Shown: positions 11,645-29,490 of the stretch, piece by piece
Layout: each line of letters starts with the position of its first letter
Numbering within the stretch: the first letter of the stretch is position 1
NCBI GenBank assembly: GCA_014730235.1
Contig: WJIO01000186.1
Span: 1 to 29,776 of the forward strand
DNA from: Candidatus Poribacteria bacterium
Lineage (GTDB): Bacteria; Poribacteria; DTPJ01; WJIO01
Direction of reading: 5' to 3'
DNA length: 29,776 bases
Made by a program: the position numbers and the translations under genes
The notes under the pieces: model-generated
What the model was told of the DNA's origin: nothing
What the model saw: the letters and a program-made list of their open reading frames with translations, nothing else
Database searches by the model: none

Positions 11645-12973
11645 TTGAATAAAAAAGTAGGTATTATAAGTCTTGGATGTAATAAAAATCTGGTTGATAC
11701 AGAGGTTATGCTGGGTTTATTAAGGGAAGAAGGATATGAAATTACCCCGGATGAAAATGTAGCTGATATTCTCATAATAAACACCTGTGCATTTATTGAT
11801 ACAGCCAGGGATGAATCAATGGAAGTTATTCATAATCTTATTGATTCTAATGGTAAAGGTGAACGTAAAATCATAGTAACCGGCTGTCTTGCCCAACGAT
11901 ATGGTGAAGAACTTGCAGAAGAATTAAAAGGTGATATACATGCCCTGGTAGGTGTTGGTAATTTCCAGAATATAGTGGATGTATGCAAATATATTCTGAA
12001 GAGCGATAAAACCATCATTCAAATATCTCCTACTCCCGCCTATATATATGACCACAGTGTTCCAAGACTGAGAACAACTCCGCCACATCTGGCTTATGTG
12101 AAAATATCGGAGGGCTGTAATAACCGATGCTCTTATTGTATTATTCCGCAATTACGCGGACCGTATCGCAGCAGGAGTATTGATTCTATACTGGCAGAAG
12201 TTGCTGTATTGTCAGAATTCGGAGTTAAAGAGATAAATCTCATCGGACAGGATACTACATGTTATGGTCGAGATTTGAATGATGGAAGTAATTTAGTAGT
12301 TTTGCTGAAGGAATTGGTTAATGTTCCTAAAACTCACTGGATCAGATTTATGTATGGCCATCCAAATCATATAGACGACGAACTCCTGGAATTGGTTGCA
12401 AAAGAAGAAAAAATCTGCTCTTATATAGATATACCTATTCAGCATATCCACGATGATATACTAAAAAGAATGGCAAGAAGAACAACACAAAAGCAGATAT
12501 TTCAATTGATAGATAAAATTCGGAATACTATACCGTATGTAACTTTAAGAACTTCCCTAATTGTAGGCTTTCCCGGTGAAAATGATGTTCACTTCAAAGC
12601 TTTAATAGATTTTGTTGAGCAGGCCCAATTCGATCATCTGGGTGTATTTGCCTATTCAAGGGAAAAGAATACAAAAGCTTATGATCTTGATGAGCAAGTT
12701 CCAGAATCAATAAAGCAGGAACGCCTTAGTCAGATAGCCAGTTTGCACCAAAGTATAGCAGATAAAAAGCGCAGAGCATTAATAGGCAGGAGAACAAAGG
12801 TGATTGTGGATGATATACTACCTCAGGCAAAAGGTAGAACTCAAGGTCAGGCTCCTGAAGTTGATGATATAACCTATATTACCAAAAGCGATAGTTGCGA
12901 ACCTGGTGATATAGTGGATATAGAAATAATAGACACTTATGAAATCTATGATTTAATTGGAAGATTAATATAA
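11645..12973 (+). CDS. rimO: Ribosomal protein S12 methylthiotransferase RimO (radical-SAM MiaB family)
   Basis: 442 aa. It has the MTTase N-domain (VGIISLGCNKNLVDTE), a radical-SAM CxxxCxxC (EGCNNRCSYC), and a TRAM C-terminus. A TTG start is preceded by GGAG. Confidence 0.85.
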   Translation: MNKKVGIISLGCNKNLVDTEVMLGLLREEGYEITPDENVADILIINTCAFIDTARDESMEVIHNLIDSNGKGERKIIVTGCLAQRYGEELAEELKGDIHALVGVGNFQNIVDVCKYILKSDKTIIQISPTPAYIYDHSVPRLRTTPPHLAYVKISEGCNNRCSYCIIPQLRGPYRSRSIDSILAEVAVLSEFGVKEINLIGQDTTCYGRDLNDGSNLVVLLKELVNVPKTHWIRFMYGHPNHIDDELLELVAKEEKICSYIDIPIQHIHDDILKRMARRTTQKQIFQLIDKIRNTIPYVTLRTSLIVGFPGENDVHFKALIDFVEQAQFDHLGVFAYSREKNTKAYDLDEQVPESIKQERLSQIASLHQSIADKKRRALIGRRTKVIVDDILPQAKGRTQGQAPEVDDITYITKSDSCEPGDIVDIEIIDTYEIYDLIGRLI

Positions 12974-13572
12974 TGAAAATACGAACAATACCAAATTATC
13001 TTACTATATTCAGAATGTTTTTAACCCCTGTTTTCATATTATTATATCAATATGTAGGTGCTTTCTTCAGCTTACTGGCCTTTTCTGTTGCAGCTATAAC
13101 GGATATGTTGGATGGAAAAATAGCTCGAAAGACTGGTATGATTACGGATTTTGGAAAATTCATGGATCCTCTGGCTGATAAGCTCCTGGTAGGCGCTGCC
13201 TTAATTGCGTTTCTCAGCCTTGGACCGAAACTTATCACCACATGGATGGTTTTGATTATCATGATCCGGGAAGTTACTATTACTATTCTACGCACTATTG
13301 CAGCGCGAAAAGGAAATGTAATAGCAGCAACGCGACTTGGTAAATATAAGGCATCATCCCAGATGTATTCCATTGTTATCGCCCTTTTGCTTTTAAGTAT
13401 TCATGACCTAAGAAATAGATTTTTTGCCGATAGATGGCATTTTTTAACCAAGATTCATGATCATAATGGCCCTATATATTATCTTATGTTTATTCCTGTG
13501 GTTCTTACTTTAATATCAGGTTTAGAATTTATTTATATTAACCGTAAGGTAATCAAGGAGATAGTGGTTTAA
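12973..13572 (+). CDS. pgsA: CDP-diacylglycerol--glycerol-3-phosphate 3-phosphatidyltransferase
   Basis: 199 aa. The CDP-alcohol phosphatidyltransferase motif is DMLDGKIARKTGMITDFGKFMDPLADKL. It is TAATG-coupled to rimO. Confidence 0.85.
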   Translation: MKIRTIPNYLTIFRMFLTPVFILLYQYVGAFFSLLAFSVAAITDMLDGKIARKTGMITDFGKFMDPLADKLLVGAALIAFLSLGPKLITTWMVLIIMIREVTITILRTIAARKGNVIAATRLGKYKASSQMYSIVIALLLLSIHDLRNRFFADRWHFLTKIHDHNGPIYYLMFIPVVLTLISGLEFIYINRKVIKEIVV

Positions 13573-13632
13573 TCTATATATTACTCACTTAAGGAAATGT
13601 GGGAATAATTTGAAAGTCTTCTAAGCATTGCT

Positions 13633-13652
13633 ATTCCTAACTTCATAGGAAT
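13633..13652. promoter_or_regulatory. ATTCCT-N8-AGGAAT palindrome (site B) with AGGAATAACA 3' extension, identical in half-sites and spacing to site A
   Basis: The sequence is ATTCCTAACTTCATAGGAAT. It lies about 200 bp upstream of cinA. Confidence 0.45.
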
Positions 13653-13850
13653 AACAGTATATAGAAATCTCTTGTGATTACCAAAATTAATTCTGAATAT
13701 CCAAAAAATTTTGAAGAAAATTTGTTGATCAAAACCTCACAAAATCACTTATAAAAGCAGAATTTAGAAAGCCTTTTCTTAAAATTCCCTTTAGTTACTA
13801 TACTTTCACAGTTTTAAAACTATTTATAATGTAATTCAGGAAAAGATTAA

Positions 13851-15092
13851 ATGCGCGGTGAACTTATTTTTGTAGGAACTGAGTTGCTCCTAGGGCAGAT
13901 AGTAAATACCAACGCCGCATATCTTGGTGAAAATCTGGCCAGGTTGGGCGTTGATCTTTATTACAGTAGTGTTATCGGGGATAATCTGGAACGTATTAAG
14001 AATACTACACAGACAGCTTTAAGCAGATCTGAATTGGTTATAATTACCGGCGGATTGGGACCGACATTTGACGATATAACCCGAGAGGGCATCGCTACGG
14101 CCATAAACCGAGAGCTTGTATATGATCCTGAGGTTATGGCCCAGATAGAAGCCCATTTTAACCGGGTTAAATATAATATACTCCCTATGCACCGACGACA
14201 GGCCTATGTATTTAAAACCGGTTGTCAGGTTGTTCCAAATCCTGTTGGTTCTGCCCCTGGACTTATAATCGAAGTAGATGGCAAGTGGATTATTGCTATG
14301 CCAGGAGTTCCCAGGGAAATGGAGCGGATGTGCAACGATACCATATTTCCCTGGATAACGAAAAGGGCCGGCAAGGGAATTATCAAATCAAGGGTGCTTA
14401 AAGTATGTGGAATGGGTGAATCCACAGTGGCCGATGCACTGAATGAAATAGTAGAACCCCTGACAAATCCCACTATTGCATTTTTAGCCCGACCTAACGA
14501 AGTATCCGTAAGAATAACGGCCAAAGCTAACGATAGCGATGAAGCAGACAGGATGATAGCTGTTGTCGCCGATCAGATAAGAACTAAGCTGGAGGATAAT
14601 GTTTTTAGTGAAGACAACCAGACAATGGAAGAGGTTATCGGATGCCTGCTGGTTAAAAATTTAGAAACCCTCGCCATTGCAGAATCCTGTACCGGCGGTT
14701 TAGTTTCTGACCGAATAACTGACATATCCGGTAGTTCCAGATACTTTCAGGGTTCTGTAATAGCTTATAGCAACAATGTAAAGTCTCAGCTTCTTAATGT
14801 TTCAGAAAGCGATCTAGAACAATACGGTGCAGTAAGTTCAACAGTTGCTTTACAGATGGCTAAGGGTGTCAGGAAACTATTGAATACAGATTACGGTCTG
14901 GGAATAACGGGTATTGCAGGACCGACTGGCGAAACTCCTGACAAACCTGTGGGTCTTGTATATATTGCTGTTGCATCAGATAAAAGGAATAATGCAAGGG
15001 AATTCAGGTTTCTTGGTGAGAGAACAACTATAAAGCGCAGGGCATCTCAGATGGCCCTGGATATGCTGAGAAGAGAACTGCTGATTAAGTGA
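13851..15092 (+). CDS. cinA: CinA-family protein (competence/damage-inducible; NMN amidohydrolase PncC-type C-terminal domain)
   Basis: 413 aa. The MoCF-type N-domain MRGELIFVGTELLLGQIVNTNAAYLG plus the CinA C-domain. Confidence 0.9.
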   Translation: MRGELIFVGTELLLGQIVNTNAAYLGENLARLGVDLYYSSVIGDNLERIKNTTQTALSRSELVIITGGLGPTFDDITREGIATAINRELVYDPEVMAQIEAHFNRVKYNILPMHRRQAYVFKTGCQVVPNPVGSAPGLIIEVDGKWIIAMPGVPREMERMCNDTIFPWITKRAGKGIIKSRVLKVCGMGESTVADALNEIVEPLTNPTIAFLARPNEVSVRITAKANDSDEADRMIAVVADQIRTKLEDNVFSEDNQTMEEVIGCLLVKNLETLAIAESCTGGLVSDRITDISGSSRYFQGSVIAYSNNVKSQLLNVSESDLEQYGAVSSTVALQMAKGVRKLLNTDYGLGITGIAGPTGETPDKPVGLVYIAVASDKRNNAREFRFLGERTTIKRRASQMALDMLRRELLIK

Positions 15093-15105: not shown

Positions 15106-16461
15106 ATGCTATTGATTGGATGTCTTACTGTGTTTGTAAGTTCTATGACGGGCAGTATATCGGATGAAAACATATTTGAATTGGGCATGTGTACCCACTT
15201 CAGTCAGGGAAAAGGGATCGTTGAATCAAATATTTACAGCATGAAAATGGCCGGAATTAGCTCTATCCGGGATGAATCCACATGGAAAGATGTGGAAAGG
15301 ACAAAAGACGTTCTTGAAATATCCGAGAGGATTGATAGATATATTGACCATGCCAATAAAGAGGGCATTGGGGTTATGATGATCCTTGATTATTCCAACC
15401 CTTTTTATGATGATGGTGACAGGCCAAAATCTCCAGAAGCTGTGGAAGGTTTTTGTCGATATTCAGAACATATAGTTAAACATTTTGGGGATAAAATCAA
15501 ATGGTATGAAATCTGGAATGAATGGGATATTCCCATTGGACTTCCACCAAAGCACCAGGAAAAGAACGGTGAACGAAACAGGGGTAAAGCGGAGGATTAT
15601 TTTAACCTTTTAAAAGCTGTATATCCAAGAATCAAGTCTGCCAATCCCGATGCAATAGTTCTGGGCGGATGTCCCACACCCGGAGCCGTCAGAAACGGAT
15701 GGCTTGAAAAGATTATGAAGTTGGGTGCAGTGGATTACTGCGATGCCATATCCATCCATACATATAACTACAGCGCAAAGGGCTTTGACAGGACGCCGGA
15801 AGCGTGGCAGGCATGGATGCTGGAAGTTCAGGCCATGCTACGTAAATATAATAACGATAATGATCCTGATTTTTACGTTACTGAAATGGGCTGGCCGACT
15901 CATGTGGACGAGAGGGGAACATCACCTGAGCTTTCCGCGTCATATTTGGCAAGACTTTATCTCCTGGCCCGGACAATGCCATCTTTTGAGGGCTTATGGT
16001 GGTATGATTTCCAGGATGATGGCTGGAAAGCTGAATATAACGAAAACAACTTTGGAATCATACGTCCTGATTTGACTCCCAAACCGGCTTATTATGTAAC
16101 ATGGGATATATCAGAACTGGTTAAACATGGTGAATATCTAGGCAGAATGAAGACTTCCGACGAGAATCTCTGGTTGCTGCAATTCAAGCTTGATGGTGAT
16201 AATATATGGGCTGTATGGTCAGGGGACGACCAGGAGCGACAGGTTATTTTTGAGACTAAAGATACGGGGATAGATCTGTCGGTTTTGCAAACAGGCCATA
16301 AGCATATGGATATGAAATGGGGCCACAGGGATTGGGTAGATAATAGAGGTCAGCCTTTGATGAAATCCCGGATGTCACTAACTGTTGGACATCGACCTTA
16401 TATTCTGAAAGGTGGATTGGGTAATATATCTGTAGTAGATATTATCCCGCGACCGAGATGA
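15106..16461 (+). CDS. Clan GH-A (TIM-barrel) glycoside hydrolase, GH5/GH39-like, with an N-terminal signal-like segment
   Basis: 451 aa. Strand-4 acid/base motif is WYEIWNEWD, and the strand-7 nucleophile context is YVTEMGWPT. The N-terminus is MLLIGCLTVFVSS. The family cannot be fixed by eye. Confidence 0.55.
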   Translation: MLLIGCLTVFVSSMTGSISDENIFELGMCTHFSQGKGIVESNIYSMKMAGISSIRDESTWKDVERTKDVLEISERIDRYIDHANKEGIGVMMILDYSNPFYDDGDRPKSPEAVEGFCRYSEHIVKHFGDKIKWYEIWNEWDIPIGLPPKHQEKNGERNRGKAEDYFNLLKAVYPRIKSANPDAIVLGGCPTPGAVRNGWLEKIMKLGAVDYCDAISIHTYNYSAKGFDRTPEAWQAWMLEVQAMLRKYNNDNDPDFYVTEMGWPTHVDERGTSPELSASYLARLYLLARTMPSFEGLWWYDFQDDGWKAEYNENNFGIIRPDLTPKPAYYVTWDISELVKHGEYLGRMKTSDENLWLLQFKLDGDNIWAVWSGDDQERQVIFETKDTGIDLSVLQTGHKHMDMKWGHRDWVDNRGQPLMKSRMSLTVGHRPYILKGGLGNISVVDIIPRPR

Positions 16462-17042
16462 AAAATAAGAAAAAAGAAACTATTAGAACATTTATTGCTA
16501 TAAAACTCCCAGAAAATATTCACAAGGTACTAAAACAACTTCAGGATGAGCTAAAAGAATCTATGCCTGATGTCAGATGGACTAAGTATGGAAATATTCA
16601 TTTGACACTTAAGTTTCTAGGTGATACCCCTGTTTCACAGGTGGATTTTATCGATGAGAAACTCAGGGAAATATCTGGTAAATTTTCATCTTTTAATATG
16701 ATTCTTGAAGGTGTTGGGGCCTTTCCAAATTCCCGTAAACCAAGAATAATATGGGCCGGGATAAATACAACGGATGAAACACTGGAAAATCTTGCAAAGC
16801 AAATAGAAAAAGAAATGGATAAGATAGGATTTCCAAAGGAAAAACGGAAATTCAAGCCGCACCTGACTATCGGCAGGATCAGAAAACTGAATAATCCAAC
16901 TGTAATGTCTAAAGTACTGGAAAATATTCAAATAAGGAAAATTGGTGAATTTACTGTTGAATCGGTTAGTTTTATTGAGAGTCAGCTTGATCCCGGTGGT
17001 TCTATATATACTACTTTATGTGATGCACCACTAAGCATTTAA
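16458..17042 (+). CDS. thpR: RNA 2',3'-cyclic phosphodiesterase (2H family, LigT/ThpR)
   Basis: 194 aa. The two H-x-T-x motifs are HLTLKFLG and HLTIGRI. It has an ATGA overlap with the GH gene. Confidence 0.85.
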   Translation: MKNKKKETIRTFIAIKLPENIHKVLKQLQDELKESMPDVRWTKYGNIHLTLKFLGDTPVSQVDFIDEKLREISGKFSSFNMILEGVGAFPNSRKPRIIWAGINTTDETLENLAKQIEKEMDKIGFPKEKRKFKPHLTIGRIRKLNNPTVMSKVLENIQIRKIGEFTVESVSFIESQLDPGGSIYTTLCDAPLSI

Positions 17043-17047
17043 AAGAT

Positions 17048-17081
17048 AACGGGGTTTTGAGTTTAACTCAAAACCCCGTTA
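17048..17081. terminator. Bidirectional intrinsic terminator between convergent thpR (+) and the cdc48-like gene (-)
   Basis: AACGGGGTTTTGAG-TTTA-ACTCAAAACCCCGTT: a perfect 13-14 bp stem with A/T-rich flanks on both sides. Confidence 0.8.
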
Positions 17082-17106: not shown

Positions 17107-19245
17107 TTATCTCTCTATGGCTTTCATTGCAGCCTGGAAGTGTTCCATATTAATCTTTATCTGTGTATAATCTTTCTCCTGTTCATCTTTGCTTTTCTGG
17201 ATAAATTCCCGGATGGCTATCATTGCCGCCCGTCTGCATACAAATTCTATATCAGCACCTACCCGGTCATCTGTCATTTTAGCCAACTCATCATAATTAA
17301 TGTCATCAGCCAGTGGTTTTTCCCTTGTATGAACTTTGAATATCTCCAAACGGGTTTTTTCGTCAGGTTTTGGCATCTCCATAACCAGATCGAGACGTCC
17401 AGGTCTTAAGAGGGCTTCATCAATGAGATCACGACGGTTAGTGGCTGCAAGCACCACAACACCCCGAAGTTCCTCGATGCCGTCCATCTCAGTTAAAAGC
17501 TGGCTTATTACACGTTCTGAGACATGGGAATCGGATGCTCCGGAACGCGGTGGAGCGATGGCGTCCAGTTCATCCAGAAATAATACGCAGGGGCTGGATT
17601 GTCTTGCTTTCTGGAAAACCTCTCTTATTCCTTTTTCAGATTCGCCGACCCACTTTGAGATTAACTCAGGTCCTTTGATTGATATGAAATTTGCTTGACT
17701 CTCGGTGGCAACTGCCTTGGCCAGCAGTGTTTTTCCTGTTCCCGGCGCGCCGTGAATTAAAACACCTTTTGTTGGTGATATGTTGGCATATTTGAATGCA
17801 TCCGCGTATTTCATAGGCCATTCGACAGCTTCCTGGAGTTCCTGCTTGATCTCCTCAAGGCCACCCACATCCTCCCAATGCACATTGGGTACTTCGGTAA
17901 ATACTTCCCTGATGCCCGATGGTTCTATTTCGTTGAGGGCATCCATGAAATTATCCATGGTAACGTTAAGATCATTCAGAATTTCATAAGGGATGGAATC
18001 TATATCAAAATCTATTTTAGGGATAATTGTTCTAAGGGCTGTCATAGCTGCTTCCCGACTTAAAGCCTCTAAATCTGCTCCTGTATAACCATGAGTTATC
18101 TCAGCCATTTTATCCAGGTCAATATCATCAAACAAAGGCATTCCACGTGTGTGAATTTCCAGGATTTGTAATCTAGCCGGGGCATCGGGTATACCAATAA
18201 CGATCTCCCGGTCAAAGCGTCCTGGGCGGCGCAGGGCTGGATCAATCATGTTAGGTAGATTTGTTGCTCCAACTACTACAATCTGTCCCCGGTCTTTCAG
18301 ACCGTCCAGAAGGGCCAAAAGCTGTGCTACAACGCGTTTTTCTACATCTCCTACTACTTTTTCCCGCTTTGGAGCTATGGAATCTATTTCATCCAGAAAT
18401 ATAATGCTGGGTGCTTTTTGCTTTGCCTGTTCAAATATTTCCCTTAGCTGTCTTTCACTCTCACCATAAAACTTATGTATTACCTCTGGGCCACTTATAG
18501 AAAAGAAAGCTGCATCAGTTTCGTTAGCCACAGCCCGGGCTAGCAGTGTTTTACCACATCCGGGAGGTCCATGAAGCAAAACACCCTTGGGCGGCTCAAT
18601 CCCTAATTTCTGGAACAACTGGGGATGCCTTAAAGGTAATTCTATCATCTCCCGAACTCTTTGTATGGCTTTATCCAAACCACCAATGTCTTCATATGCA
18701 ATACCAGCTTTATTTTGTCCTCCTTCTCTTTGACCTTCTATATTAATTCTTGTATCAGGATGAATAAGGACTATATCATCAGGGGATGTTTTTGACACAA
18801 TAAATTCCTGGAACCTGGAACCAAAGAGGGTGGCTCTGACTACATCACCGGATACTACAGGTAAATCATTAAGTAGTTTGCCCACATATTTTGTGTCCCG
18901 TTGTTGTGAAAAACGGGTTTTCCCGGAAGCCTGAGTGAGATATATTAGCTTTGCTGGTTGGGCTGAAACTGGAGACAGTTTGACCTTTTCACCGATTCCT
19001 GTATCGGCATTACGACGGGTAAGGCCGTCAATCTGAATGATTTCTTTACCTCGATCATCAGGATACGCAGGCATTACCTTAGCGACTGTCATTCGTTTAC
19101 CCCGAATACTGATAATATCCCCTACAGAAACGTCAAGTTTTTTCATATCTTCGGGATCCATCCGGGCAAGACCTTTACCTGCATCCCGATTTAATCCTTC
19201 TGATACTTTAAGATTAATCGTATTTGGCTCTGTTCCTGCACCCAT
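17107..19245 (-). CDS. Cdc48/VAT/p97-type double-ring AAA+ ATPase (N-domain + D1 + D2), last gene of the gvp-linked operon
   Basis: 712 aa. The Cdc48-N domain is [41 protein letters not shown]1 Walker A is [20 protein letters not shown] with DEID Walker B. D2 Walker A is [20 protein letters not shown] with DELD Walker B. Both SRH regions are present. It is TAAATG-coupled to the upstream 189-aa ORF. The SD is AGGAG. Confidence 0.9.
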
Positions 19246-19815
19246 TTAATGATTCTCCTTTAGATTTTTTACCGATTTATAGATCTTGATGTCGTCAACC
19301 AATTTATCAGTCACTTTATGAAGAGCTCCCATAAACAAAAGGCCAGTTTCACCATCCTTCAGAGTCGAGTCAATCCTACAGGCTATATATTCATCCCGGC
19401 GTTTCATCAGATCGTCGTATTTGTTTGTTGAACCAACTACTCCCATGTTCTTAAGTCTTTCCCTTTCCTCTAGCAGTAGCTCTGATGCTTCTGTTCCAAC
19501 TATTGATGCTCCTTTTTGGATTAACTCCAGCAGTAGCTTATAATTTCTGTTGCCATCTTCTGCAAGGGCCTGGACTATTTTAAGTTCCTGATTACATACA
19601 GGTAGACTGTCCTGATAGATTTTTGCTTTTTTGTAATTAATAGGTAAATTGAGCAGTGTATTCCTGATTTCTGTCCAGAAATTTTCAACAGCCTTTATAT
19701 GTTCTTCCCATTTAGATTCACCATATCTAGCTGTGTATTGTTTTCTGGCTTCGGATAAATGGTTTCCCAGGTCTTCAGGTGTATGAACAATAGGTATATA
19801 AAGCAATTCTCGCAT
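19246..19815 (-). CDS. Hypothetical 189-aa protein between the last gvpF/L and cdc48-like. It is translationally coupled on both sides, with no family recognised.
   Basis: The start is 2 nt after the gvpF/L stop and is preceded by GGAG. The stop abuts the cdc48 ATG. The protein is predicted alpha-helical and soluble (MRELLYIPIVHTPEDLGNHLSEARKQYTARYGESKWEEHIKAVENFWTEI...). Confidence 0.5.
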   Translation of the reverse strand: MRELLYIPIVHTPEDLGNHLSEARKQYTARYGESKWEEHIKAVENFWTEIRNTLLNLPINYKKAKIYQDSLPVCNQELKIVQALAEDGNRNYKLLLELIQKGASIVGTEASELLLEERERLKNMGVVGSTNKYDDLMKRRDEYIACRIDSTLKDGETGLLFMGALHKVTDKLVDDIKIYKSVKNLKENH

Positions 19816-19817
19816 TT

Positions 19818-20537
19818 TTACTCCAAGCCTTTCCAGAGATTTATATTTGCAAAAGTATAAGGAGGCCAGGGGCCTGAATAAAGCAAACGCAGGTCTGGAT
19901 TATTATTCCTGAACTGCTGGTAAGAGTATTTAAAGGATTCCAATTGATCCTGTTCGATCAGATAGCATATATTCCTGATAAGCATCCTTTTTATAATTTT
20001 AACGCTGGAGATAACTTCAGAACTATGGGGAATAAGGATTTTATCCAGCTTCTGTTTCAAATCTCCCGATATATCCTTTAATTTTTTTATATTGTCGTGT
20101 TTACGTTTTTTATTCATCAGGTAATTCATGCCATTTTGAATTTTTACTTCTTTATTATCTCTGGATTTTATATCTATGTTTTTAATATCAAATAAAATCT
20201 TTATACTGATTTCTGCTTTACCCTCAAGTTTTGACAGGTATTCATTCAGTATTTTCATATTTTCTTTTAAAAATATTATTATATCCTCAATATCCGGGAA
20301 AAAGGTGGCAAAGCGACATGGTATTATAGATTGAGATTGCTTAAAAATAATATCCACAACTTTCTGATGATTAATAACGTTGGTATTGTTAGCATCCAAA
20401 CTGCGAGAATCAATTTCACTAAAGAAAACCGATATATCACCCAAAGTTACAATTCGGATTCTTGAGTTGCAAATACCCGTAGATAGATCTTTTGGCATTA
20501 TTGTATTATTTTTGGTTAAACAATAAACATATTTCAA
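19818..20537 (-). CDS. gvpF: GvpL/GvpF-family gas vesicle protein (paralogue 4)
   Basis: 239 aa. N-terminus is MKYVYCLTKNN. The C-terminal family signature is LLYSGPWPPYTFANINL. Confidence 0.8.
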   Translation of the reverse strand: MKYVYCLTKNNTIMPKDLSTGICNSRIRIVTLGDISVFFSEIDSRSLDANNTNVINHQKVVDIIFKQSQSIIPCRFATFFPDIEDIIIFLKENMKILNEYLSKLEGKAEISIKILFDIKNIDIKSRDNKEVKIQNGMNYLMNKKRKHDNIKKLKDISGDLKQKLDKILIPHSSEVISSVKIIKRMLIRNICYLIEQDQLESFKYSYQQFRNNNPDLRLLYSGPWPPYTFANINLWKGLE

Positions 20538-20542: not shown

Positions 20543-21379
20543 TTATTCTTCTTTAAAAACATTGAATTCAGGACAGAAATTATAACACGGCCAAGGACCA
20601 CTTAACTCGAATAATATAAGGCTTGGTTTATGTCTAAGGGCAAGTTTATCCAAGTTTTTTTTGAAATTATCAAAAGATTTCTTATCAATCAAAAAAGCAG
20701 AATTAAGTATCATATCCATATTTTTTCCCGTTGCATTTCTGCCAAGAAGTTTATTTCTACATCCTGCTATGCACCAGGATGATATAGTCTTATATATTGA
20801 ATTAGAAAGATTTTTCAGGTAATTGGTGCGGAATTTGCTGATTAAGCTCTCCCGCTTTTTTTTCAATAGATATGCTTTGCCCGGTGGCATATGGGCAATA
20901 CGTTTATCCAGATCCACAATTTCTTTGCTTGATTTAGCTATTTCCTCTGAACCAGCGTCATTTTCAGCATATACCTTTATTCCCCATTCCTCTTTTCCAT
21001 CAACAACGTCAAAATAATCATTAAATTCCTTGAATCCCTTAACCAGTATATCAATGATTTTCTTGCTATCAGAATAGATAGTGCCAAAACGCATAGGGAT
21101 AATACTGTGATTCTCCATTGCTGTTCTTATTATTTTTTCATGGGTTCTTACTCTTGGAGTTAACCACTCAATGTTCTGAAGGGATTTTTCCAGTGCGTCT
21201 TCGTTATATTTATCTCTGGAAACTGAACTTACCAGAGCACCGAGGTTTTGGTGAGATAAAAAAAAGGTTTTATTTTGCCTATCTATTCCTGGATTTGATT
21301 CTATATCCGGTATACCCCTGAAAATACAATAAAGGTAAAAATTATTATTCTGGTCTAATCCTGATTCTTCTGCTTCCAC
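20543..21379 (-). CDS. gvpL: GvpL/GvpF-family gas vesicle protein (paralogue 3)
   Basis: 278 aa. Contains FYLYCIFRG and the C-terminal ELSGPWPCYNFCPE signature. Confidence 0.8.
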   Translation of the reverse strand: MEAEESGLDQNNNFYLYCIFRGIPDIESNPGIDRQNKTFFLSHQNLGALVSSVSRDKYNEDALEKSLQNIEWLTPRVRTHEKIIRTAMENHSIIPMRFGTIYSDSKKIIDILVKGFKEFNDYFDVVDGKEEWGIKVYAENDAGSEEIAKSSKEIVDLDKRIAHMPPGKAYLLKKKRESLISKFRTNYLKNLSNSIYKTISSWCIAGCRNKLLGRNATGKNMDMILNSAFLIDKKSFDNFKKNLDKLALRHKPSLILFELSGPWPCYNFCPEFNVFKEE

Positions 21380-21888
21380 AATTTAATCTCCACTATACCA
21401 TTTCTGTTTGAGTATTTAGTTTTTTCTTCATCAACAGGAGCGGAAAGTAGTATTTCCTTGTAATATTTTCGCTCTTTTTTTTCACCTGATAGTATAAGTA
21501 TATCTCCTTTAATTTCGTATTTTATTTCAGTTTCTGATACTCCAGGCATTTCAGCGATTACCAGTATATAATCACCTTCATCAAAAATATCCACCATAGG
21601 TTCCCGAATTTCATCAACTATCGGTCCTTGTTTTTTTTCTTTAACATTACCAAATTGTTGAACAGTAGCTTTTCCACCAGTTCCAAATTTCACAGAAACG
21701 CCGTATACGGCTTTCAAGTCTTTATCATCACCGATTACCCCTTCTTTTTTTATACTTTCGGATTTTTCGGCTAATTCACTTGCCAGATCGATCAGGGAAC
21801 CAAGACCTTTAAACAAACCTCCTAATCCTATATCAATATTTATGTTGCCTTTGACGTTATCCTTTTTATCATCTTTACCCATTACCAA
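21355..21888 (-). CDS. gvpH: Hsp20/alpha-crystallin-domain protein (GvpH-like)
   Basis: 177 aa. The ACD-like core is VDIFDEGDYILVIAEMPGVSETEIKYEIKGDILILSGEKK...NGIVEIKLWK. The N-terminal region is glycine/lysine-rich. It overlaps the downstream gvpF/L by 25 nt. The SD is GGAGG. Confidence 0.7.
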   Translation of the reverse strand: MVMGKDDKKDNVKGNINIDIGLGGLFKGLGSLIDLASELAEKSESIKKEGVIGDDKDLKAVYGVSVKFGTGGKATVQQFGNVKEKKQGPIVDEIREPMVDIFDEGDYILVIAEMPGVSETEIKYEIKGDILILSGEKKERKYYKEILLSAPVDEEKTKYSNRNGIVEIKLWKQKNQD

Positions 21889-21931
21889 TAACCTCCATCT
21901 TCAGTTTTACTGAATTATATATAATAATAGC

Positions 21932-21950
21932 GCCCCGCATATAGCGGGGC
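21932..21950 (-). terminator. GC-rich hairpin followed by a U/A-rich tract on the minus-strand transcript, between gvpJ and gvpH. Candidate terminator or attenuator.
   Basis: GCCCCGC-ATATA-GCGGGGC, a 7-bp all-GC stem. Downstream on the minus strand is GCUAUUAUUAUAUAUAAUU, which also holds a TATAAT -10-like element for gvpH. Confidence 0.4.
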
Positions 21951-22008
21951 TTAAGCACGCGTTACACAATTTTTAGGAGAGAGACATGCAAAGCGTGCTG
22001 ACGATTGC

Positions 22009-22347
22009 TTAACTGGTTTTTTCTAATTCAGATATACGTTTTTTAAGAGCTTCTATTTCAGCTTCTTTATCTTCAAGTTGGTGTGCTTTTACTTCTTGTT
22101 CCAACCTTTGTTTGCGTTCCGCCATAGCACTTAAAAACGGATTACCTTCCCACCAATCTATACCCATCTCTTTGGCCCTTTCCACTGATGCCAGAAGCAA
22201 TCTAATATTGATTGTCAAAAGCTCAACTTCCAGAAGCTTAATACGGATATCGCCAGCAATAACAACGCCCTTATCCAATACTCTCTCAAGGATTTCCACC
22301 AGGTTATTTGCGTTGGTGGAATGAACAATTTGTTCTTGGTGTCCCAC
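22009..22347 (-). CDS. gvpJ: GvpJ (GvpA-family gas vesicle protein with extended coiled-coil C-terminus)
   Basis: 112 aa. The core LVEILERVLDKGVVIAGDIRIKLLEVELLTINIRLLLASVERAKEMGIDWW matches the GvpA/J/M fold. Confidence 0.85.
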   Translation of the reverse strand: MGHQEQIVHSTNANNLVEILERVLDKGVVIAGDIRIKLLEVELLTINIRLLLASVERAKEMGIDWWEGNPFLSAMAERKQRLEQEVKAHQLEDKEAEIEALKKRISELEKTS

Positions 22348-22361
22348 AGACCCATTCCCCT

Positions 22362-22691
22362 CTAATCAAGTAAATTTCCTAAAGGTCCTAAATCAATGTT
22401 TAGCTCTTCTATTTCAAAATATTCTTTCAACTCAATAATTTTTTCCTCTAACTTCATAAGAGTAGTACCGAGTCGCTCAATTTCTTCATCAGTTAGAGTT
22501 CCGCCTTCTATTCTTCTAATAGCCTGTTTTTCCAGCAACTGCCTGATAAGCTCTACCAGAGCCAGAACCAACTTTACAAGTCCTTGTTCTACTCCCTCTG
22601 GATCTACCTTCACCTTTGTAGGCTTTTTAACTGGTTCAAGGTTATTCGCAAAATCATCCAGGAATTTTGATGTTATCTCAGGTCGATTCAC
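22362..22691 (-). CDS. gvpK: GvpK gas vesicle protein
   Basis: 109 aa. LVKLVLALVELIRQLLEKQAIRRIEGGTLTDEEIERLGTTLMKLEEKIIELKEYF matches the conserved GvpK core. Confidence 0.85.
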   Translation of the reverse strand: MNRPEITSKFLDDFANNLEPVKKPTKVKVDPEGVEQGLVKLVLALVELIRQLLEKQAIRRIEGGTLTDEEIERLGTTLMKLEEKIIELKEYFEIEELNIDLGPLGNLLD

Positions 22692-22911
22692 TGATTATTT
22701 CCTCATCCATTGCTTCAATAAGTGTTTCAACAGAACTTACCAGAACACTCAGACCTATATACAGAAGTTCCACACCAGCGACAGATATGCAAATTTCTCC
22801 AGTTAATACAGCCCCTTTATTTAATACGCGATCCAGAAGTTCACACAAAGAAATCCTTTGTTCCAATGATATATCATCATTATCATCTGGAAATTCATTA
22901 ATGATGTCCAT
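22678..22911 (-). CDS. gvpM: GvpA-family minor paralogue (GvpM/GvpS-like)
   Basis: 77 aa. The GvpA-like core is LCELLDRVLNKGAVLTGEICISVAGVELLYIGLSVLVSSVETL. The N-terminus is acidic. Confidence 0.75.
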   Translation of the reverse strand: MDIINEFPDDNDDISLEQRISLCELLDRVLNKGAVLTGEICISVAGVELLYIGLSVLVSSVETLIEAMDEEIISEST

Positions 22912-22930
22912 ATATTACCTCAAGCTTTAA

Positions 22931-23242
22931 TTACTCAACAATTTCCTCAAGATCCATTCTTTTACGCATGCTGCGGCGTTCATAATTAATAACATCACCA
23001 TCTTCGTCAAGTTCAACTTCGTATATACCCAATACATCCAGTGTATCAGGTATTGCTTTTCTCTCTATAAATTCAATGGTGATATTCCAACCATCTTCAG
23101 TTCTTGATGCTCCAACCACACTTGAAAGCTCCAATCCTATTAGCATTTGGAGTTGTTCAACAGCGTTGTTTATTGCATCCTTCAGTTTTAGACGAACCGT
23201 TTTATTCTCATGTAAGGTATTTATTTCTTCAATCTCAGCCAT
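22931..23242 (-). CDS. gvpO: GvpO-like gas vesicle synthesis protein
   Basis: 103 aa. Size, position and the ...LSSVVGASRTEDGWNITIEFIERKAIPDTLDVLGIYEVELDEDGDVINYER pattern resemble GvpO (PF05800). The call rests on recall, not a search. Confidence 0.55.
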   Translation of the reverse strand: MAEIEEINTLHENKTVRLKLKDAINNAVEQLQMLIGLELSSVVGASRTEDGWNITIEFIERKAIPDTLDVLGIYEVELDEDGDVINYERRSMRKRMDLEEIVE

Positions 23243-23296
23243 AAATTTCTCCTTGATGATTGTGTTATTTGGACATAGAATATTTTTATTATATCA

Positions 23297-23920
23297 TTAA
23301 TCCGATGACAGATCAATTAACTCCAGTTCTAATTTTTTTCTACCAAAAACCAATGCTTCTTTTACGGTAGGCATGAGTAAATCAATATTTCTACCATTGT
23401 TTTTTTTCATGGCTGATCCTGTATCACATGCAAAAAAGTACCTGTTAATTTCCGGAGCATACAGGACAGAACCATATGGAATAACACCGGGATCAACAGC
23501 AGCAACACCCATACCTGCCGGAATGAGGTTAGATGTCAATCCATCGTTAAATGGAACGCAGCTATCTTTGGGATCATAGGCAGTAACATTAAAATAACCT
23601 AAAGATTTCCGTTTTCCCTTTTTGGATAAAGTAGATATAGCTGCACGATATGCCTTTATTTCACCTTTAAGGAGTGATGATTTTATAGCGTATTCATTTA
23701 TCATCTCTTTTAGTCTTGTATGTTCCTGAGTCATTTGTGTTTGGTAATCATGGCTAACCCGCATGTATGTAAACAGGCATGATAATCCCATTGCGGTAAA
23801 AATAGCAAATGACAATACACCAAAGTAGACAAACAATTTAGCACCTTGTTTCTTAAATATATCTTTTATAAGAGAATAAGCCCTACCTGTATAAGAAGAA
23901 TTACAGGCTAACGTTTCCAT
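23297..23920 (-). CDS. Membrane-anchored 3D-domain protein (MltA/YorM-like double-psi beta-barrel, probable peptidoglycan-binding or lytic domain) embedded in the gvp operon
   Basis: 207 aa. One N-terminal TM segment (LFVYFGVLSFAIFTAMGLSCLF) and a coiled linker precede the 3D domain TAYDPKDSCVPFNDGLTSN...GVAAVDPGVIPYGSVLY...FACDTGSAMKKNNGRNIDLLMPT, which carries the conserved Asp residues. Confidence 0.6.
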   Translation of the reverse strand: METLACNSSYTGRAYSLIKDIFKKQGAKLFVYFGVLSFAIFTAMGLSCLFTYMRVSHDYQTQMTQEHTRLKEMINEYAIKSSLLKGEIKAYRAAISTLSKKGKRKSLGYFNVTAYDPKDSCVPFNDGLTSNLIPAGMGVAAVDPGVIPYGSVLYAPEINRYFFACDTGSAMKKNNGRNIDLLMPTVKEALVFGRKKLELELIDLSSD

Positions 23921-23924
23921 CGCC

Positions 23925-24161
23925 TTAACCTCCGCCTTTTTGAGCAGCTATCTCTTCCAAAATATCCACAAGCTCTTCTTCTTTTTCTTCAAATTCCTCT
24001 TCGCTGATTTCACCTTTTTCCAATTGTAAATAAAGATTTCTTAAATCTTCTCTTATCTTATCTTCATTAAAAAGCTCTTCTTTTGCCATTTCGTCAATTT
24101 TCTTAGCTATAAATACCGGTAATTTTATTGGTGCCAGTAAAATATTATCAAGAATACCCAT
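23925..24161 (-). CDS. gvpG: GvpG gas vesicle protein
   Basis: 78 aa. MGILDNILLAPIKLPVFIAKKIDEMAKEELFNEDKIREDLRNLYLQLEKGEISEEEFEEKEEEL matches the GvpG pattern (MFLLDDLL...A...ELYD...I...L..L...E.GEISE.E). Confidence 0.7.
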   Translation of the reverse strand: MGILDNILLAPIKLPVFIAKKIDEMAKEELFNEDKIREDLRNLYLQLEKGEISEEEFEEKEEELVDILEEIAAQKGGG

Positions 24162-24166
24162 GACTA

Positions 24167-24952
24167 CTACCTTTCGAGATGCAATTCCAGTCTGTCAACA
24201 AAACTGAATGGAGGCCAGGGACCGTCAAGTTTGAGGGAATACTCATTTCCCATATTTTCGCCTAGTCTATCAATGGCCTTTTCCAGATCAGAACGCATGT
24301 CTTTTTCAATTAGCAAAGTTGCATTAGTTATTGTTGAATCATTGTTTATTTCTTCAACCCGGGCTTCTCCCGGAGGAAGATGGGTTAAAATATCATTGGT
24401 TATCTGTTCTCTGGTTTTTTCCATTCTCTTGTGGAAATAAGTACCAAAATCAATAATTTCCTTACGTCCCAGGGATTTACCCTCGCCCATGTATTTATCC
24501 CGAATGGATCTGAGTTTATCATCCCTGTCAATGAAATACTTAAACACATCATCAACATTCCATTCAACCTTTAATCCCATTTCAACTTTGTTCTTAAGTC
24601 TTTCAAGCTCCTGTCGAATAGTTTGGTAACTTTTACGCAGAGCAATATTAACCTCACCTGCATCTCTAGCTATCTGACCGAATCTGGCAGGAATTGTGGT
24701 AAAAAGCTCTGATGCCTTGCGTATCACTTCATGGTATGGAGCCAGATTTTTCCTGAGAAGTTTAATGGAATCAACACGAGGATAATCACTTACCAGAGCA
24801 CCAATATCTTCATAATGAATGCTATGGACAACTTTATTATCCAGACCTATAGGACCGAAGTTACTTTCCTGATCTGAAAGAATAACAGCGTAAAACAATT
24901 TTCCATAATGGGAGCTTCCGTTATTTACTTTTCTTGTAACTCGCTTTCTCAT
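24167..24952 (-). CDS. gvpF: GvpL/GvpF-family gas vesicle protein (paralogue 2)
   Basis: 261 aa. The C-terminal signature is [13 protein letters not shown]. It has a 4-nt ATGA overlap with the upstream gene. Confidence 0.8.
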
Positions 24953-25986
24953 CGGATCAATAACCTCTCTGCAATAAAAACTTTTTCAACTTCATCTCTT
25001 GAGAACGAAAAAACAGCATTTTTTCCATCTTCAAGAGAACTGCTATAACTATGACAATATGACTCTAAAATTTTATAGGCTTCGTCTATTTCTTTAAAAA
25101 GCTTATATGATTCCTTGTCTCCATCCGTTTTGTCAGGATGGTATTTCAACGCAAGTCTTCGATAGGATGCCTTAATATCATCCAGATGTGCTTTTTCCGG
25201 GAGTTCCAGCCTTCTACGGGCTTTATCAATTAATTCATAATTGCCTTTTTTGAATTCAAGTGGTGCAAAACTATAGGGAGGAATTGGGCCAATATATTTA
25301 AAACTGAGGTAAGATTCATTTTCATTACCAAGTTCCTCCATAGCCTTATCGAATTCTGCTTCATCCTGTCTATTGATGAGATAGCTCCTGTTAAAAATAA
25401 TTGAGTCATCGGCTGATCTACCTTCTGATGAATCAATAGATACATTGGATAATTTGTCGTGAATAGAATCAATAATCTGGCGTTTTAGTTTTTCTGCTGA
25501 CTGGAACAGTAGTTTACCAAGCTGAATTTTATCATTAATGTCAATAGATTTCACAGCCTCTTTAAGCCAGTTTTCATCTTTACTTATATTCTGTAAAACT
25601 GTATCCAGATCCCAGAAAAGCTGAACTGCAAATTCAGCTTTATTGCGAAGGTTATTCAGTGCCCATTTAATATGTATGTAGGAATTGGCCATGAATTCCT
25701 CAACCTGTTCTTCCTGATCCACCATAATTCCAAATCTAAGCGGGAGTATAGTGAGGTTTTGGAATATATTTATATTTATCTGTTGGTAAGATGCAAGAAG
25801 GACTTTAAGTTCAGCTTCATGCATTCCGGGCTGTTCAGCAATAGCAGGATCTATTTTTCTGGTGATAGTTGTAAGATCTTTATAATTTATGCTATGTATC
25901 GTCTCAGGAATGGAAATATATTCATTTTCAAATTTGGTAGTTTCAACGATACAATGAAGCAAGAATGTATTTAATTTTTCTGTCAT
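24949..25986 (-). CDS. GvpL/GvpF-family protein fused to a C-terminal DnaJ J-domain (paralogue 1)
   Basis: 345 aa. The GvpF/L core ends at the signature [16 protein letters not shown] canonical J-domain follows: [59 protein letters not shown], with the HPD tripeptide present. Confidence 0.8.
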
Positions 25987-26132
25987 AATAGGTTAACCTT
26001 TCCAGCAAATTTACAGATCAGTATTTAATTGTAAACTACTATAATTATATATAAAAGGGTGTGACATACTTACGTCACTTTAGTCCTGGTATTTTGTATT
26101 TTGAAATTTAGTCGGGTAAATACAAAAGATTC

Positions 26133-26153
26133 GGGCACGAAAATTTCGTGCCC
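26133..26153. other. Strong perfect hairpin (GGGCACGAAA-A-TTTCGTGCCC) in the gvp internal intergenic region. Possible minus-strand terminator for the gvpC-N-orf107-orf94 unit, or a protein-binding site.
   Basis: Seen directly. On the minus strand it is followed by GAAUCUUUUGUAUUU. Confidence 0.35.
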
Positions 26154-26220
26154 ATTAAAAATGATTGCTTTTGTTAACCTATTTTGTTATGAAATCGCTA
26201 AAAATAAAGATATGTTTACT

Positions 26221-26432
26221 GTAATCGTTAAAAAATGAAAAATGTATTTAGAAAATACTTTTATGATGATGGTAAATTACAAAATTTGTCATTCCTGCGA
26301 AACTCTTATTCCTTTTTACTCAAGCCTTTTCAAAAAGCTTGAAGCAGGAGTCCAGAAAAAACTTATCCAGAAAGACCGGATTCCTGCTTTTGCAGGATGA
26401 CATCATGAATGATATTCATTTCTAACGATTAC
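26221..26432. repeat. ~212-bp element, copy 2 of the TIR-bounded element. It has outer inverted arms GTAATCGTTAAAAAATG / TAACGATTAC and inner inverted arms GTCATTCCTGC / GCAGGATGAC, and includes an ATTCCT-N8-AGGAT palindrome (26380-26399).
   Basis: The outer arms at 26221-26237 and 26423-26432 are 10/10 reverse-complementary, extended to about 19/23. The inner arms are at 26288-26298 and 26392-26401. The left arm plus the GTCATTCCTGC spacing (about 55 bp) parallels copy 1 at 10089-10166. Confidence 0.6.
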
Positions 26433-26434
26433 TG

Positions 26435-26719
26435 TTACTGTTTTAAGATTATTAGTTTTCTATTCCCAATTGTATTTGTAAACCTGACATTTACAACATC
26501 ATTGGGTTTTAGATCCATAAATGACAGCAAGTTATCTGGAATAACAAGTCTATTTGATGAATCCAAACGGGCTAATCCTCTTATAATACCTATAGACCTT
26601 GAAATATTACCATTCAGTTTATGATGACGATTATTAAAACACCTTATATACCTGAAATGTTTTATTTTGCCCGATGTTTTTATATTTCGTCTTGTTTTAA
26701 GTTTAATAATATTTCGCAT
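26435..26719 (-). CDS. Small protein with a C-terminal AbrB/MazE/SpoVT-like swapped-hairpin DNA-binding domain. The start codon is uncertain.
   Basis: The C-terminal 50 aa SIGIIRGLARLDSSNRLVIPDNLLSFMDLKPNDVVNVRFTNTIGNRKLIILKQ aligns by eye to the AbrB N-domain (GIVRKVDELGRVVIPIELRRTLGIAEKDALEIYVDDEKIILKK). The basic N-terminal 40 aa may be a mis-called extension. There are 3 nt between the upstream ORF stop and its start. Confidence 0.45.
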   Translation of the reverse strand: MRNIIKLKTRRNIKTSGKIKHFRYIRCFNNRHHKLNGNISRSIGIIRGLARLDSSNRLVIPDNLLSFMDLKPNDVVNVRFTNTIGNRKLIILKQ

Positions 26720-26722
26720 AGC

Positions 26723-27046: not shown

Positions 27047-27171
27047 AACTATCTTCGGCGATTAATTATCCCTGAATTCTTTGAAATCCTGGGTAGGAAT
27101 AGCCGTCATCCCCCTTTCAAGAATATAATGAGTATTTTTGATAAAATGTCGAAGCCTTAAACTACCGGGAA

Positions 27172-28053: not shown

Positions 28054-28081
28054 ATTAATTCCCCTCGAATATTATTTCTGA

Positions 28082-29242: not shown

Positions 29243-29392
29243 GAAAGCAACCTCCTATTATAAAATATTATAAAAAAACACATATTCAGAAAATTATTTA
29301 AAAGGCCAATTATTTATCCGAATATATAGTCAAATTTTAATTTATTAAACCGTTTTAGCTGATTGCTGAATCAGCTTAATGCTTTACTATTA

Positions 29393-29413: not shown

Positions 29414-29490
29414 TTTGATCTTCCGGATGAAGTCATCACCCGGAAGAATCAAAGGGATCTGACGAATCAGAAGTTTTTTGGTAGGATTAT

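Follow-up and report, generated by a model that had tools for sequence, protein, structure and literature searches.

Why should a gas-vesicle gene cluster of a bacterium end in a gene for a double-ring ATPase of the Cdc48 type? The question is raised by contig WJIO01000186.1 of a Candidatus Poribacteria bacterium, of which 29,776 nucleotides (the window, that is, the whole stretch of DNA that was analysed) carry the gas-vesicle (gvp) genes together with a gene for a Cdc48/VAT-type AAA+ ATPase of 712 residues and a gene for a 189-residue protein of a family without a name, here called T189 (orf189). Gas vesicles are built from a protein lattice that is among the most aggregation-prone and stable known, and two questions about them are open, namely how GvpA is kept assembly-competent and whether cells ever dismantle vesicles. 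The ATPases so far discussed for GvpA upkeep or vesicle removal are only GvpN and ArsA. Comparison of the window with related loci points to a mobile, conserved five-gene proteostasis module that is probably dedicated to gas vesicles and would consist of an Hsp20 holdase, a Cdc48/VAT unfoldase, a T189 hydrolase and two GvpF/L proteins. The five genes are listed here in the order of transcription.

21355-21888, minus strand: Hsp20/alpha-crystallin small heat-shock protein, opening the tight five-gene block (Pfam HSP20, E 7.4e-4)
20543-21379, minus strand: GvpF/L paralogue c, module member (Pfam GvpL_GvpF, E 1.3e-52)
19818-20537, minus strand: GvpF/L paralogue d, module member (Pfam GvpL_GvpF, E 1.4e-38)
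19246-19815, minus strand: T189, 189 amino acids, family without a name (NCBI GF312_08855, 'hypothetical protein')
17107-19245, minus strand: Cdc48/VAT-type double-ring AAA+ ATPase, 712 amino acids (Pfam, NCBIfam, VAT alignment)

Association of Cdc48 and T189 with gas-vesicle genes

A scan of one genome per GTDB species for relatives of T189 gave 213 matching stretches that encode one. The best 80 loci were kept and annotated by phmmer with the window proteins as queries, and counts were taken from the 41 loci that are flanked by 5 kb or more on each side. The T189 homologue has gvp genes nearby in 36 of these well-flanked loci, Cdc48 in 32 and Hsp20 in 37. The corresponding numbers for the 30 bacterial loci are 28, 26 and 29. 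The bacterial hosts belong to Zixibacteria, Planctomycetota, Acidobacteriota, Chloroflexota, Nitrospinota, Myxococcota, Binatia, KSB1, Aerophobetes and Alphaproteobacteria, the last represented by Bradyrhizobium (among them the cultured Bradyrhizobium sp. SZCCHNS2002, L048), Methylovirgula and Rhodopila. The archaeal hosts are Methanoperedens, Methanolobus, Methanosarcina, Methanothrix and Hadarchaeota.

The same association is found when the search starts from the ATPase. Eight Cdc48 homologues of 62-75% identity, selected solely on the length of their contigs, all belong to gvp clusters, and the immediate neighbour of each is a T189 gene (upstream in two loci, downstream in six). Five of the downstream neighbours (L110-L114) were confirmed as T189 by hmmsearch with E values of 3e-52 to 3e-69, and the others were identified by the phmmer annotation. 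With eight out of eight, the gvp-linked share of that Cdc48 clade has a one-sided 95% lower bound of about 0.69. Close relatives from metagenomes, with 78, 57 and 56% identity, are linked to both gvp genes and T189, those at 55% identity or less are not linked, and every sampled Cdc48 at 62-79% identity is gvp-linked.

The earlier note on this DNA had proposed that Cdc48 and orf189 are functionally linked to gas vesicles because they would be co-transcribed with the gvp genes. The link itself has gained strong comparative-genomic support, co-occurrence of Cdc48 with gvp genes being positive from both starting points, and a uniform location of Cdc48 orthologues away from gvp genes was not seen in the genomes sampled. 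Co-transcription with the gvp genes upstream of the five-gene block is putative. Judged by gene neighbourhood, the Cdc48/T189 pair is very probably a dedicated helper of gas vesicles.

A five-gene module in shuffled order

Hsp20, Cdc48, GvpF/L-c, GvpF/L-d and T189 (c and d being the labels of the window paralogues) recur together in permuted order. The order Hsp20, GvpF/L-c, GvpF/L-d, T189, Cdc48 is found in the window and in L001. The order T189, Hsp20, Cdc48, GvpF/L-c, GvpF/L-d is found in Acidobacteriota, Planctomycetota, Nitrospinia (Nitrospinota) and other loci, and L032 has Hsp20, Cdc48, GvpF/L-c, GvpF/L-d, T189. Alphaproteobacteria show Hsp20, T189, Cdc48, and Chloroflexota and Coprothermobacterota show Hsp20, Cdc48, T189. 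In Methanoperedens, Cdc48 and T189 stand in this order next to a gvp cluster of divergent orientation, and the archaeal loci L004 and L040 carry Hsp20-T189 and GvpN-x-GvpO-Cdc48 at different spots of one gvp region. Hsp20 lies immediately upstream of Cdc48 in most related loci, and direct adjacency of Cdc48 and T189 is seen in 22 of 47 pairs, 11 in each gene order. Linkage that outlasts so much shuffling argues for function rather than accident. The recurring unit, as read from these neighbourhoods, is five genes rather than two, in which Hsp20 and two specific GvpF/L paralogues travel together with Cdc48 and T189.

Consistently, the distance matrices of Cdc48, T189, Hsp20 and GvpN over 39 loci are all correlated with one another (r 0.59-0.83; 0.785 for Cdc48 against GvpN), which means that inheritance or transfer of the module went along with that of the gvp genes. 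Such a mirror-tree result reflects co-inheritance with the gvp cluster and not a specific contact between T189 and Cdc48.

Several observations weigh against a role dedicated to gas vesicles. Five of the 41 well-flanked T189 loci have no gvp gene within 10 kb, and several archaeal gvp clusters (Methanosarcina, Methanothrix) contain T189 with no Cdc48 within 10 kb. A T189-Hsp20-Cdc48 trio stands without any gvp gene within ~10 kb (L020), and Hsp20-Cdc48 pairs stand with neither T189 nor gvp genes in view (L090, 182-3100; L091, 4669-7620), so that a broader substrate range is possible. Judged by a published list of conserved genes (PMC9501494), Halobacterium, Anabaena, Bacillus megaterium and Serratia form their gas vesicles in the absence of this module. 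The module is therefore accessory and not essential, and its absence from these four experimentally studied gvp systems would explain why it was overlooked. A shared history of the linked genes is supported by a neighbour-joining tree that unites nearly all gvp-linked Cdc48s (bacterial ones, that of the window included, and those of Methanoperedens and Methanolobus) in one clade, and leaves the unlinked Cdc48s outside it together with three archaeal linked ones, but this tree has no bootstraps and few unlinked outgroups.

The isolated trio and pairs, together with the frequent location of gvp clusters on plasmids or islands (for example, the Methylocella plasmid), would fit a generic stress cassette of a small heat-shock protein and a stand-alone AAA+ disaggregase that is carried along by mobile gvp islands as a passenger, with no substrate particular to gas vesicles. 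However, passive linkage would be expected to decay, and all eight close Cdc48 homologues sampled and the great majority of the T189 loci are gvp-linked in more than 15 phyla despite the shuffling of gene order. Two GvpF/L paralogues are interleaved in the module, the Cdc48 phylogeny follows that of GvpN, and those Hsp20-Cdc48 pairs that are not linked to gvp genes have no T189 and do not belong to the gvp-linked clade. Mere hitch-hiking is very unlikely. The pairs of L090 and L091 may represent a generic ancestor of the module.

Variants of the module in other genomes

Further chaperone parts are present in related clusters. A GvpF/L protein with a C-terminal J-domain, as encoded in the window, is also found in L001, L109, L110, L112, L113, L115 and L116, Hsp70 is encoded in clusters L111, L113, L114 and L116, and sister clusters also carry a second Hsp20. 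Such additions indicate that keeping Gvp proteins soluble is apparently a recurrent need, and the J-domain fusions together with the cluster-borne Hsp70 suggest that Hsp70 has been recruited to gas-vesicle assembly.

In Chloroflexota-type clusters, an HTH_3 DNA-binding domain is fused to the N-terminus of the Hsp20 encoded directly upstream of Cdc48 (L111, 9306-9995; L112, 9261-9971), and this fusion protein is possibly an aggregate-sensing transcription factor. Two-domain ArsA-type ATPases are encoded in gvp clusters that have the Cdc48 module (L111, 1892-3904; L114, 2273-4321; L116, 6970-8970), and some clusters encode three or four ATPases out of GvpN, ArsA, Hsp70 and Cdc48.

The gvp cluster on plasmid 2 of the cultured methanotroph Methylocella tundrae T4 (L118, NZ_LR536451.1) ends in Hsp20, T189 and Cdc48. 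RefSeq names the Methylocella orthologues 'hypothetical protein' (T189) and 'AAA family ATPase' (Cdc48). The M. tundrae Cdc48 region (12590-14799) is annotated as three consecutive open reading frames, two 'hypothetical' and one 'AAA family ATPase', and this Cdc48 is probably disrupted. Octadecabacter arcticus is a gas-vacuolate sea-ice bacterium, and plasmid pOA238_160 of its strain 238 (L117) carries an orphan T189 homologue at 11974-12591 with IS5/IS6/IS66 transposases on both sides. No gvp gene lies within 12 kb of this orphan, which is uninformative on context.

The Cdc48-type ATPase

By every sequence-level measure, the 712-residue protein is a member of the CDC48/VAT family. A Cdc48 N-domain and two complete AAA modules had already been recognized from the letters of the window, and the profile searches bear this out. 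Pfam finds CDC48_N (E 1.5e-27, residues 12-94), CDC48_2 (E 6.4e-10, residues 116-171), AAA (PF00004) in two stretches (7.4e-93) and AAA_lid_3 in two stretches. The NCBIfam model TIGR01243, 'CDC48 family AAA ATPase', is matched with 968.8 bits against a cut-off of 802.65, and the closest solved structure is Thermoplasma VAT (5g4f, E 6.9e-223). Since Pfam assigns GvpN to the MoxR/AAA_5 type, the locus does encode two distinct AAA+ machines, as had been suggested.

The first AAA domain (D1) has the Walker A motif GPPGCGKT and the Walker B motif DEID (FLDEID), and the second (D2) has GAPGTGKT and DELD (FLDELD). The D1 pore loop, KFYGES, is aromatic and corresponds to KYYGQS in VAT, and the D2 pore loop, SKWVGESE (KWVGES), is the same as in VAT. 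With intact Walker motifs and VAT-like aromatic pore loops, the protein looks like an active translocase. Its C-terminus (...MKAIER) lacks the HbYX motif for docking to the 20S proteasome, a motif that marks partnership with the proteasome and not membership of the CDC48/VAT family. The penultimate Tyr is missing in nearly all gvp-linked Cdc48 homologues, and the unlinked homologues of L095-L098 end in ..SYLG. Bacteria of these phyla are not known to possess 20S proteasomes. A missing HbYX tail in such phyla suggests that the motor would work alone or with another partner.

T189, a putative hydrolase

T189 has no match in NCBIfam, and no named Gvp family of Pfam matches it. Its score with the Pfam family TraB_PrgY_gumN (PF01963), 17.0 bits, is below the gathering threshold of 26.8. 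Among 33 family members, 23 likewise match this Pfam family below the threshold (best E 2.8e-7), and they match no different one. An AlphaFold model built from 33 homologues has a predicted local distance difference test (pLDDT) score of 91.5, and its predicted fold is of the TIKI/TraB/EreA/ChaN type, with a parallel beta-sheet core in an alpha/beta arrangement. The parallel-sheet fold is common to ChaN, EreA/Bcr135, HopBA1, RRSP and PMT; ChaN, HopBA1 and PMT are counted in the TIKI superfamily, whose active members have a site of two His and two Glu (PMC6254334). A Foldseek search of the PDB with the model gave no significant match, so that the fold assignment is moderate and short of certain, and a profile search of PDB sequences gave chance-level matches only.

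Over 276 members, the invariant positions of T189 are H11, Q68-D69, N91, E109, E117, R140-D141 and G163-x-x-H166, nearly all of them polar. H11 follows predicted strand 1, Q68-D69 follows strand 2 and G163-x-x-H166 follows strand 5. The position of the invariant residues just past predicted strands recalls that of the 2His/2Glu active sites of TIKI proteins, of which they would be candidate counterparts. Because the fold and motifs are similar and the score remains below the Pfam threshold, T189 is filed as a probable divergent member of the TIKI/TraB/EreA superfamily. The family counts 1341 representatives of 50%-identity clusters at E <= 0.001, all unannotated or 'hypothetical'.

Two family members, P0170 and P0203, have a response-regulator receiver (REC) domain N-terminal to T189, and in P0162 a single open reading frame joins the C-terminus of GvpF/L to T189. 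The gene that follows the REC-T189 fusion P0170 (L119, 1430-2446) encodes a PAS-domain protein.

The earlier note had taken the 189-residue protein for a substrate adaptor. As a full alternative, T189 would have no catalytic role and would bind the N-domain of Cdc48 as an adaptor or regulator, bringing GvpA to it in the manner of UBX- or SHP-type p97 cofactors. However, the TIKI-fold protein PMT, which is non-catalytic, has lost the His/Glu set (PMC6254334), whereas two His, three acidic residues and one Arg of T189 are retained without exception over the same 276 sequences. A receiver domain fused to T189 is the usual architecture of a regulated enzymatic output domain, and T189 is also present in the Methanosarcina and Methanothrix gvp clusters that have no Cdc48 nearby. 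A purely non-catalytic role is therefore doubtful. The fold, the invariant polar residues and the response-regulator fusions argue for a regulated enzyme rather than a passive adaptor, and the adaptor assignment is revised to a putative hydrolase of the TIKI/TraB fold. T189 is likely to be a small, sometimes phospho-regulated hydrolase tied to GvpF/L. The roles of enzyme and adaptor are not exclusive and can coexist, docking on Cdc48 included.

Proposed mechanism

Without chaperones, the extremely hydrophobic proteins GvpA, GvpJ and GvpM aggregate, and GvpA is bound by GvpF (PMC9501494). In the mechanism considered most likely, the GvpF/L paralogues and Hsp20 would bind hydrophobic, aggregation-prone shell proteins of the GvpA/J/M type in off-pathway aggregates, stalled assembly intermediates or collapsed shells. 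The Cdc48 ring, a putative hexamer, would then use ATP to pull these proteins out and unfold them, threading the chains past its aromatic pore loops. T189 would cooperate with the ATPase as a substrate processor, and a specific cut or hydrolysis would make an initiation site or dispose of the extracted chain. In at least some lineages, T189 may be under two-component control. The Gvp shell proteins as substrates, catalysis by T189 and contact between T189 and Cdc48 are inferred, and the net outcome may be either quality control of assembly or active dismantling.

A stronger form of the latter outcome would make Cdc48 and T189 a proteasome-independent, ATP-dependent disassembly and degradation machine that dismantles gas vesicles or collapsed shells on command. 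T189 would act as a peptidase that nicks or degrades GvpA and GvpC, Cdc48 would pull subunits from the amyloid-like lattice, and two-component phosphorylation, at which the REC-T189 fusions hint, would be the on-switch. This form is rather unlikely. If true, it would be the first active mechanism of gas-vesicle removal and would give a large bacterial Cdc48 clade its first defined cellular function.

The receiver-domain fusions could also belong to a regulatory device, in which Cdc48 and T189 would act on a regulator or on GvpC, the outer strengthening protein, by removing or cleaving it, and so adjust in response to signals how vesicles form or at what pressure they collapse. The parallel would be haloarchaeal GvpD, by which GvpE levels are reduced. 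Response regulators, histidine kinases or sigma-54 activators lie beside the module in many loci (L001, L007, L110, L112, L115, L116, L118), the HTH-Hsp20 fusions of L111 and L112 are encoded directly upstream of Cdc48, and proteases of the TIKI family, RRSP among them, process their substrates at specific sites (PMC6254334). However, no regulator is consistently co-conserved with the module, and the gvp cluster of the window contains no two-component gene. The constant companions, Hsp20 and GvpF/L, are chaperone-like and shell-protein-binding, not transcription factors. Regulation as the purpose of the module is given little credence here.

An anti-phage defence role is unsupported, PADLOC having given no specific match to a defence protein. 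Cdc48 is matched there only by generic AAA-domain similarity (IetA, TRIP13), and T189 and Hsp20 have no match.

A proteostasis module dedicated to gas vesicles would have several consequences. With a predicted threading unfoldase, a small heat-shock protein and a putative hydrolase conserved in gvp clusters across well over a dozen phyla, there are clonable candidates for both open questions, the upkeep of GvpA and the removal of vesicles. A large clade of bacterial Cdc48 homologues would be given a functional setting for the first time, and T189 defines a new protein family. E. coli suffers proteotoxic stress when it is made to express gas vesicles as ultrasound reporters (PMC12848028), and a natural Gvp-specific chaperone/unfoldase module would be an obvious candidate for co-expression with heterologous gas vesicles.

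Gene layout of the window

A complete gas-vesicle cluster occupies 29709 to 17107 of the minus strand and includes four GvpF/L genes (Pfam). The features outside the five genes listed above are as follows.

22009-29709, minus strand: remaining gas-vesicle cluster (Pfam)
29491-29709, minus strand: gvpA
28082-29242, minus strand: GvpC-like repeat protein
27172-28053, minus strand: gvpN, AAA_5 type (Pfam)
26723-27046 and 26435-26719, minus strand: two small unknowns of 107 and 94 amino acids
24949-25986, minus strand: GvpF/L-J-domain fusion (Pfam DnaJ, E 4.1e-15)
24167-24952, minus strand: another GvpF/L
3' of the GvpF/L at 24167-24952, minus strand, in this order: gvpG, 3D-domain protein (23297-23920), gvpO, gvpJ-type, gvpK, gvpJ-type
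21932-21950, minus strand: GC-rich hairpin GCCCCGC-TATAT-GCGGGGC followed by AT-rich TATATAAT, in the 120-nt gap (21889-22008) between gvpJ and Hsp20
17047-17081, minus strand: intrinsic terminator ending the five-gene block, a 16-bp stem followed by TCTTTTAAAT

Hsp20, the two GvpF/L genes, orf189 and Cdc48 are separated by overlaps or gaps of at most 5 nt. Two junctions that had been described before were read directly in the sequence and are as stated: the ATG of orf189 follows the gvpF/L stop TAA after 2 nt (...GGAGTAAAAATGCGA), and the ATG of Cdc48 follows the orf189 stop TAA immediately, giving TAAATG (...AAGGAGAATCATTAAATGGGT). A Shine-Dalgarno sequence, AAGGAG, lies 9 nt 5' of the Cdc48 ATG. 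The Hsp20 gene probably starts at the ATG at 21882, which is preceded by GGAGG, and its product scores 137.7 bits with the NCBIfam model 'archaeal Hsp20', which has a cut-off of 140.

The earlier note placed orf189 and Cdc48 as the last two genes of a gvp operon. They do close the tight five-gene block, but the gvp cluster upstream is interrupted by several gaps, one of them the 120-nt gap with the GC-rich hairpin between gvpJ and Hsp20. 'Operon' was therefore too wide a term, and the firm claim is narrowed to the tightly packed block. The hairpin at 21932-21950 and its AT-rich stretch may be an attenuator, or a boundary plus an internal promoter that would make Hsp20 to Cdc48 a sub-operon; these assignments are a consensus-level match only. 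A scan for sigma-70 promoters found 46 sites against 42.8 +/- 6.5 in shuffled sequence, and with no excess over shuffled sequence it is uninformative on internal promoters.

The hairpin at 17047-17081 is, from its predicted fold, a good terminator of the Cdc48 transcript. Folded as minus-strand RNA, it has a free energy (dG) of -32.1 kcal/mol (z = -7.1), which was equalled by 0 of 200 shuffles. Its T-rich tail TCTTTTAAAT belongs to the minus-strand (Cdc48) transcript only, so that the label 'bidirectional' given to this terminator holds for the minus strand and lacks a T-rich tail for the other direction.

Some genes of the cluster have counterparts in related loci. The gene at 23297-23920 (minus strand), in the middle of the gvp cluster, encodes an N-terminal hydrophobic segment and a 3D (MltA/RlpA-like) domain, and similar 3D or DPBB genes are found in clusters of Zixibacteria, Ignavibacteria and another member of Poribacteria (ends of L010, L011 and L015; L110, 7922-8482). 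The protein at the GvpC position has 386 amino acids, with about five tandem repeats of ~40 residues (SK.L..K...D...R......L.DEV..F......D.Q.M), a very acidic linker rich in Glu, Asp and Pro, and a C-terminal globular end; it matches no Pfam family, and homologues occupy the same position in L001, L008 and L109. The open reading frames of 107 and 94 amino acids between gvpN and the GvpF/L-J-domain gene are kept at that position in the same three loci, and the former is additionally present in L014 and L115.

The rest of the window carries polysaccharide and sulfate-activation genes, LolA, a MiaB-like radical-SAM enzyme and LigT, none of them related to gvp. A 451-residue open reading frame at 15106-16461 (plus strand) has no Pfam or NCBIfam match. 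It overlaps the LigT-like 2'-5' RNA ligase gene (16458-17042), which converges on Cdc48.

Comparison with known systems

The motor of the window shares with archaeal VAT/Cdc48, and with the Cdc48-20S proteasome system, the architecture of an N-domain and two AAA rings. In contrast to that system, it is encoded in a bacterium and within a gas-vesicle cluster, it has no HbYX tail, and its companions are a TIKI-fold protein and Hsp20, not a proteasome. It also belongs to a clade separate from the unlinked Cdc48s sampled. GvpN is likewise an ATPase of gvp clusters, present in the window, and is thought to drive a step of vesicle growth (PMC9501494). However, GvpN is universal in gvp clusters and has a single AAA_5 domain, with neither an N-domain nor a translocating double ring. 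Cdc48 would be an additional, accessory motor of a different mechanism.

Small heat-shock proteins and AAA+ disaggregases form bi-chaperone systems, such as IbpA/B with ClpB-DnaK, or sHsp20 with the stand-alone ClpG/ClpK on mobile heat-resistance loci. The module resembles these in that an Hsp20 holdase gene lies directly beside the gene of a predicted hexameric AAA+ threading motor, in being mobile and island-borne, and in the addition of Hsp70 and a J-domain in some gvp clusters. It differs in that the motor is of the Cdc48 type, not Clp/Hsp100, and in that the module lies within an organelle-specific cluster and includes GvpF/L paralogues and a TIKI-fold protein.

Eukaryotic p97/Cdc48 has substrate-processing cofactors such as PNGase and Otu1/YOD1. 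The concept of a small hydrolase that acts on a substrate held or threaded by Cdc48 is similar; however, T189 has no kinship with these cofactors in sequence or fold, there is no ubiquitin system, and the interaction of T189 with Cdc48 is putative. The TIKI/TraB/PrgY/GumN-EreA-ChaN superfamily, with the Wnt protease Tiki, the Ras endopeptidase RRSP and the erythromycin esterases, is the named comparison for T189. Unlike its described members, T189 is far smaller (~190 amino acids), cytoplasmic, under the Pfam gathering score and without an NCBIfam model, and it has fixed genomic partners, the Cdc48 ATPase and the gas-vesicle genes; its activity is putative.

ArsA-type ATPases and Hsp20 have been described in gvp clusters of Bacteroidota/Chlorobi, Geobacter, cyanobacteria and Acidobacteria (Castillo & Saier 2010, PMC2963123), in a paper that mentions neither Cdc48 nor the T189 family. 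With these genes, the recruitment of an accessory ATPase and of Hsp20 into gvp clusters has a precedent, and ArsA co-occurs with the Cdc48 module in L111, L114 and L116. However, it is dimeric and non-threading, has a deviant Walker A motif and belongs to another ATPase class than Cdc48. A full-text search of the gas-vesicle literature found no paper on a Cdc48 or TraB-like gene in gvp clusters, the sole mention of Cdc48 found in a gas-vesicle paper being that of a non-specific Ni-NTA contaminant. Hsp20 and ArsA in gvp clusters were already known, and a gvp cluster with a probably dedicated Cdc48-type proteostasis module would be a new form of such clusters.

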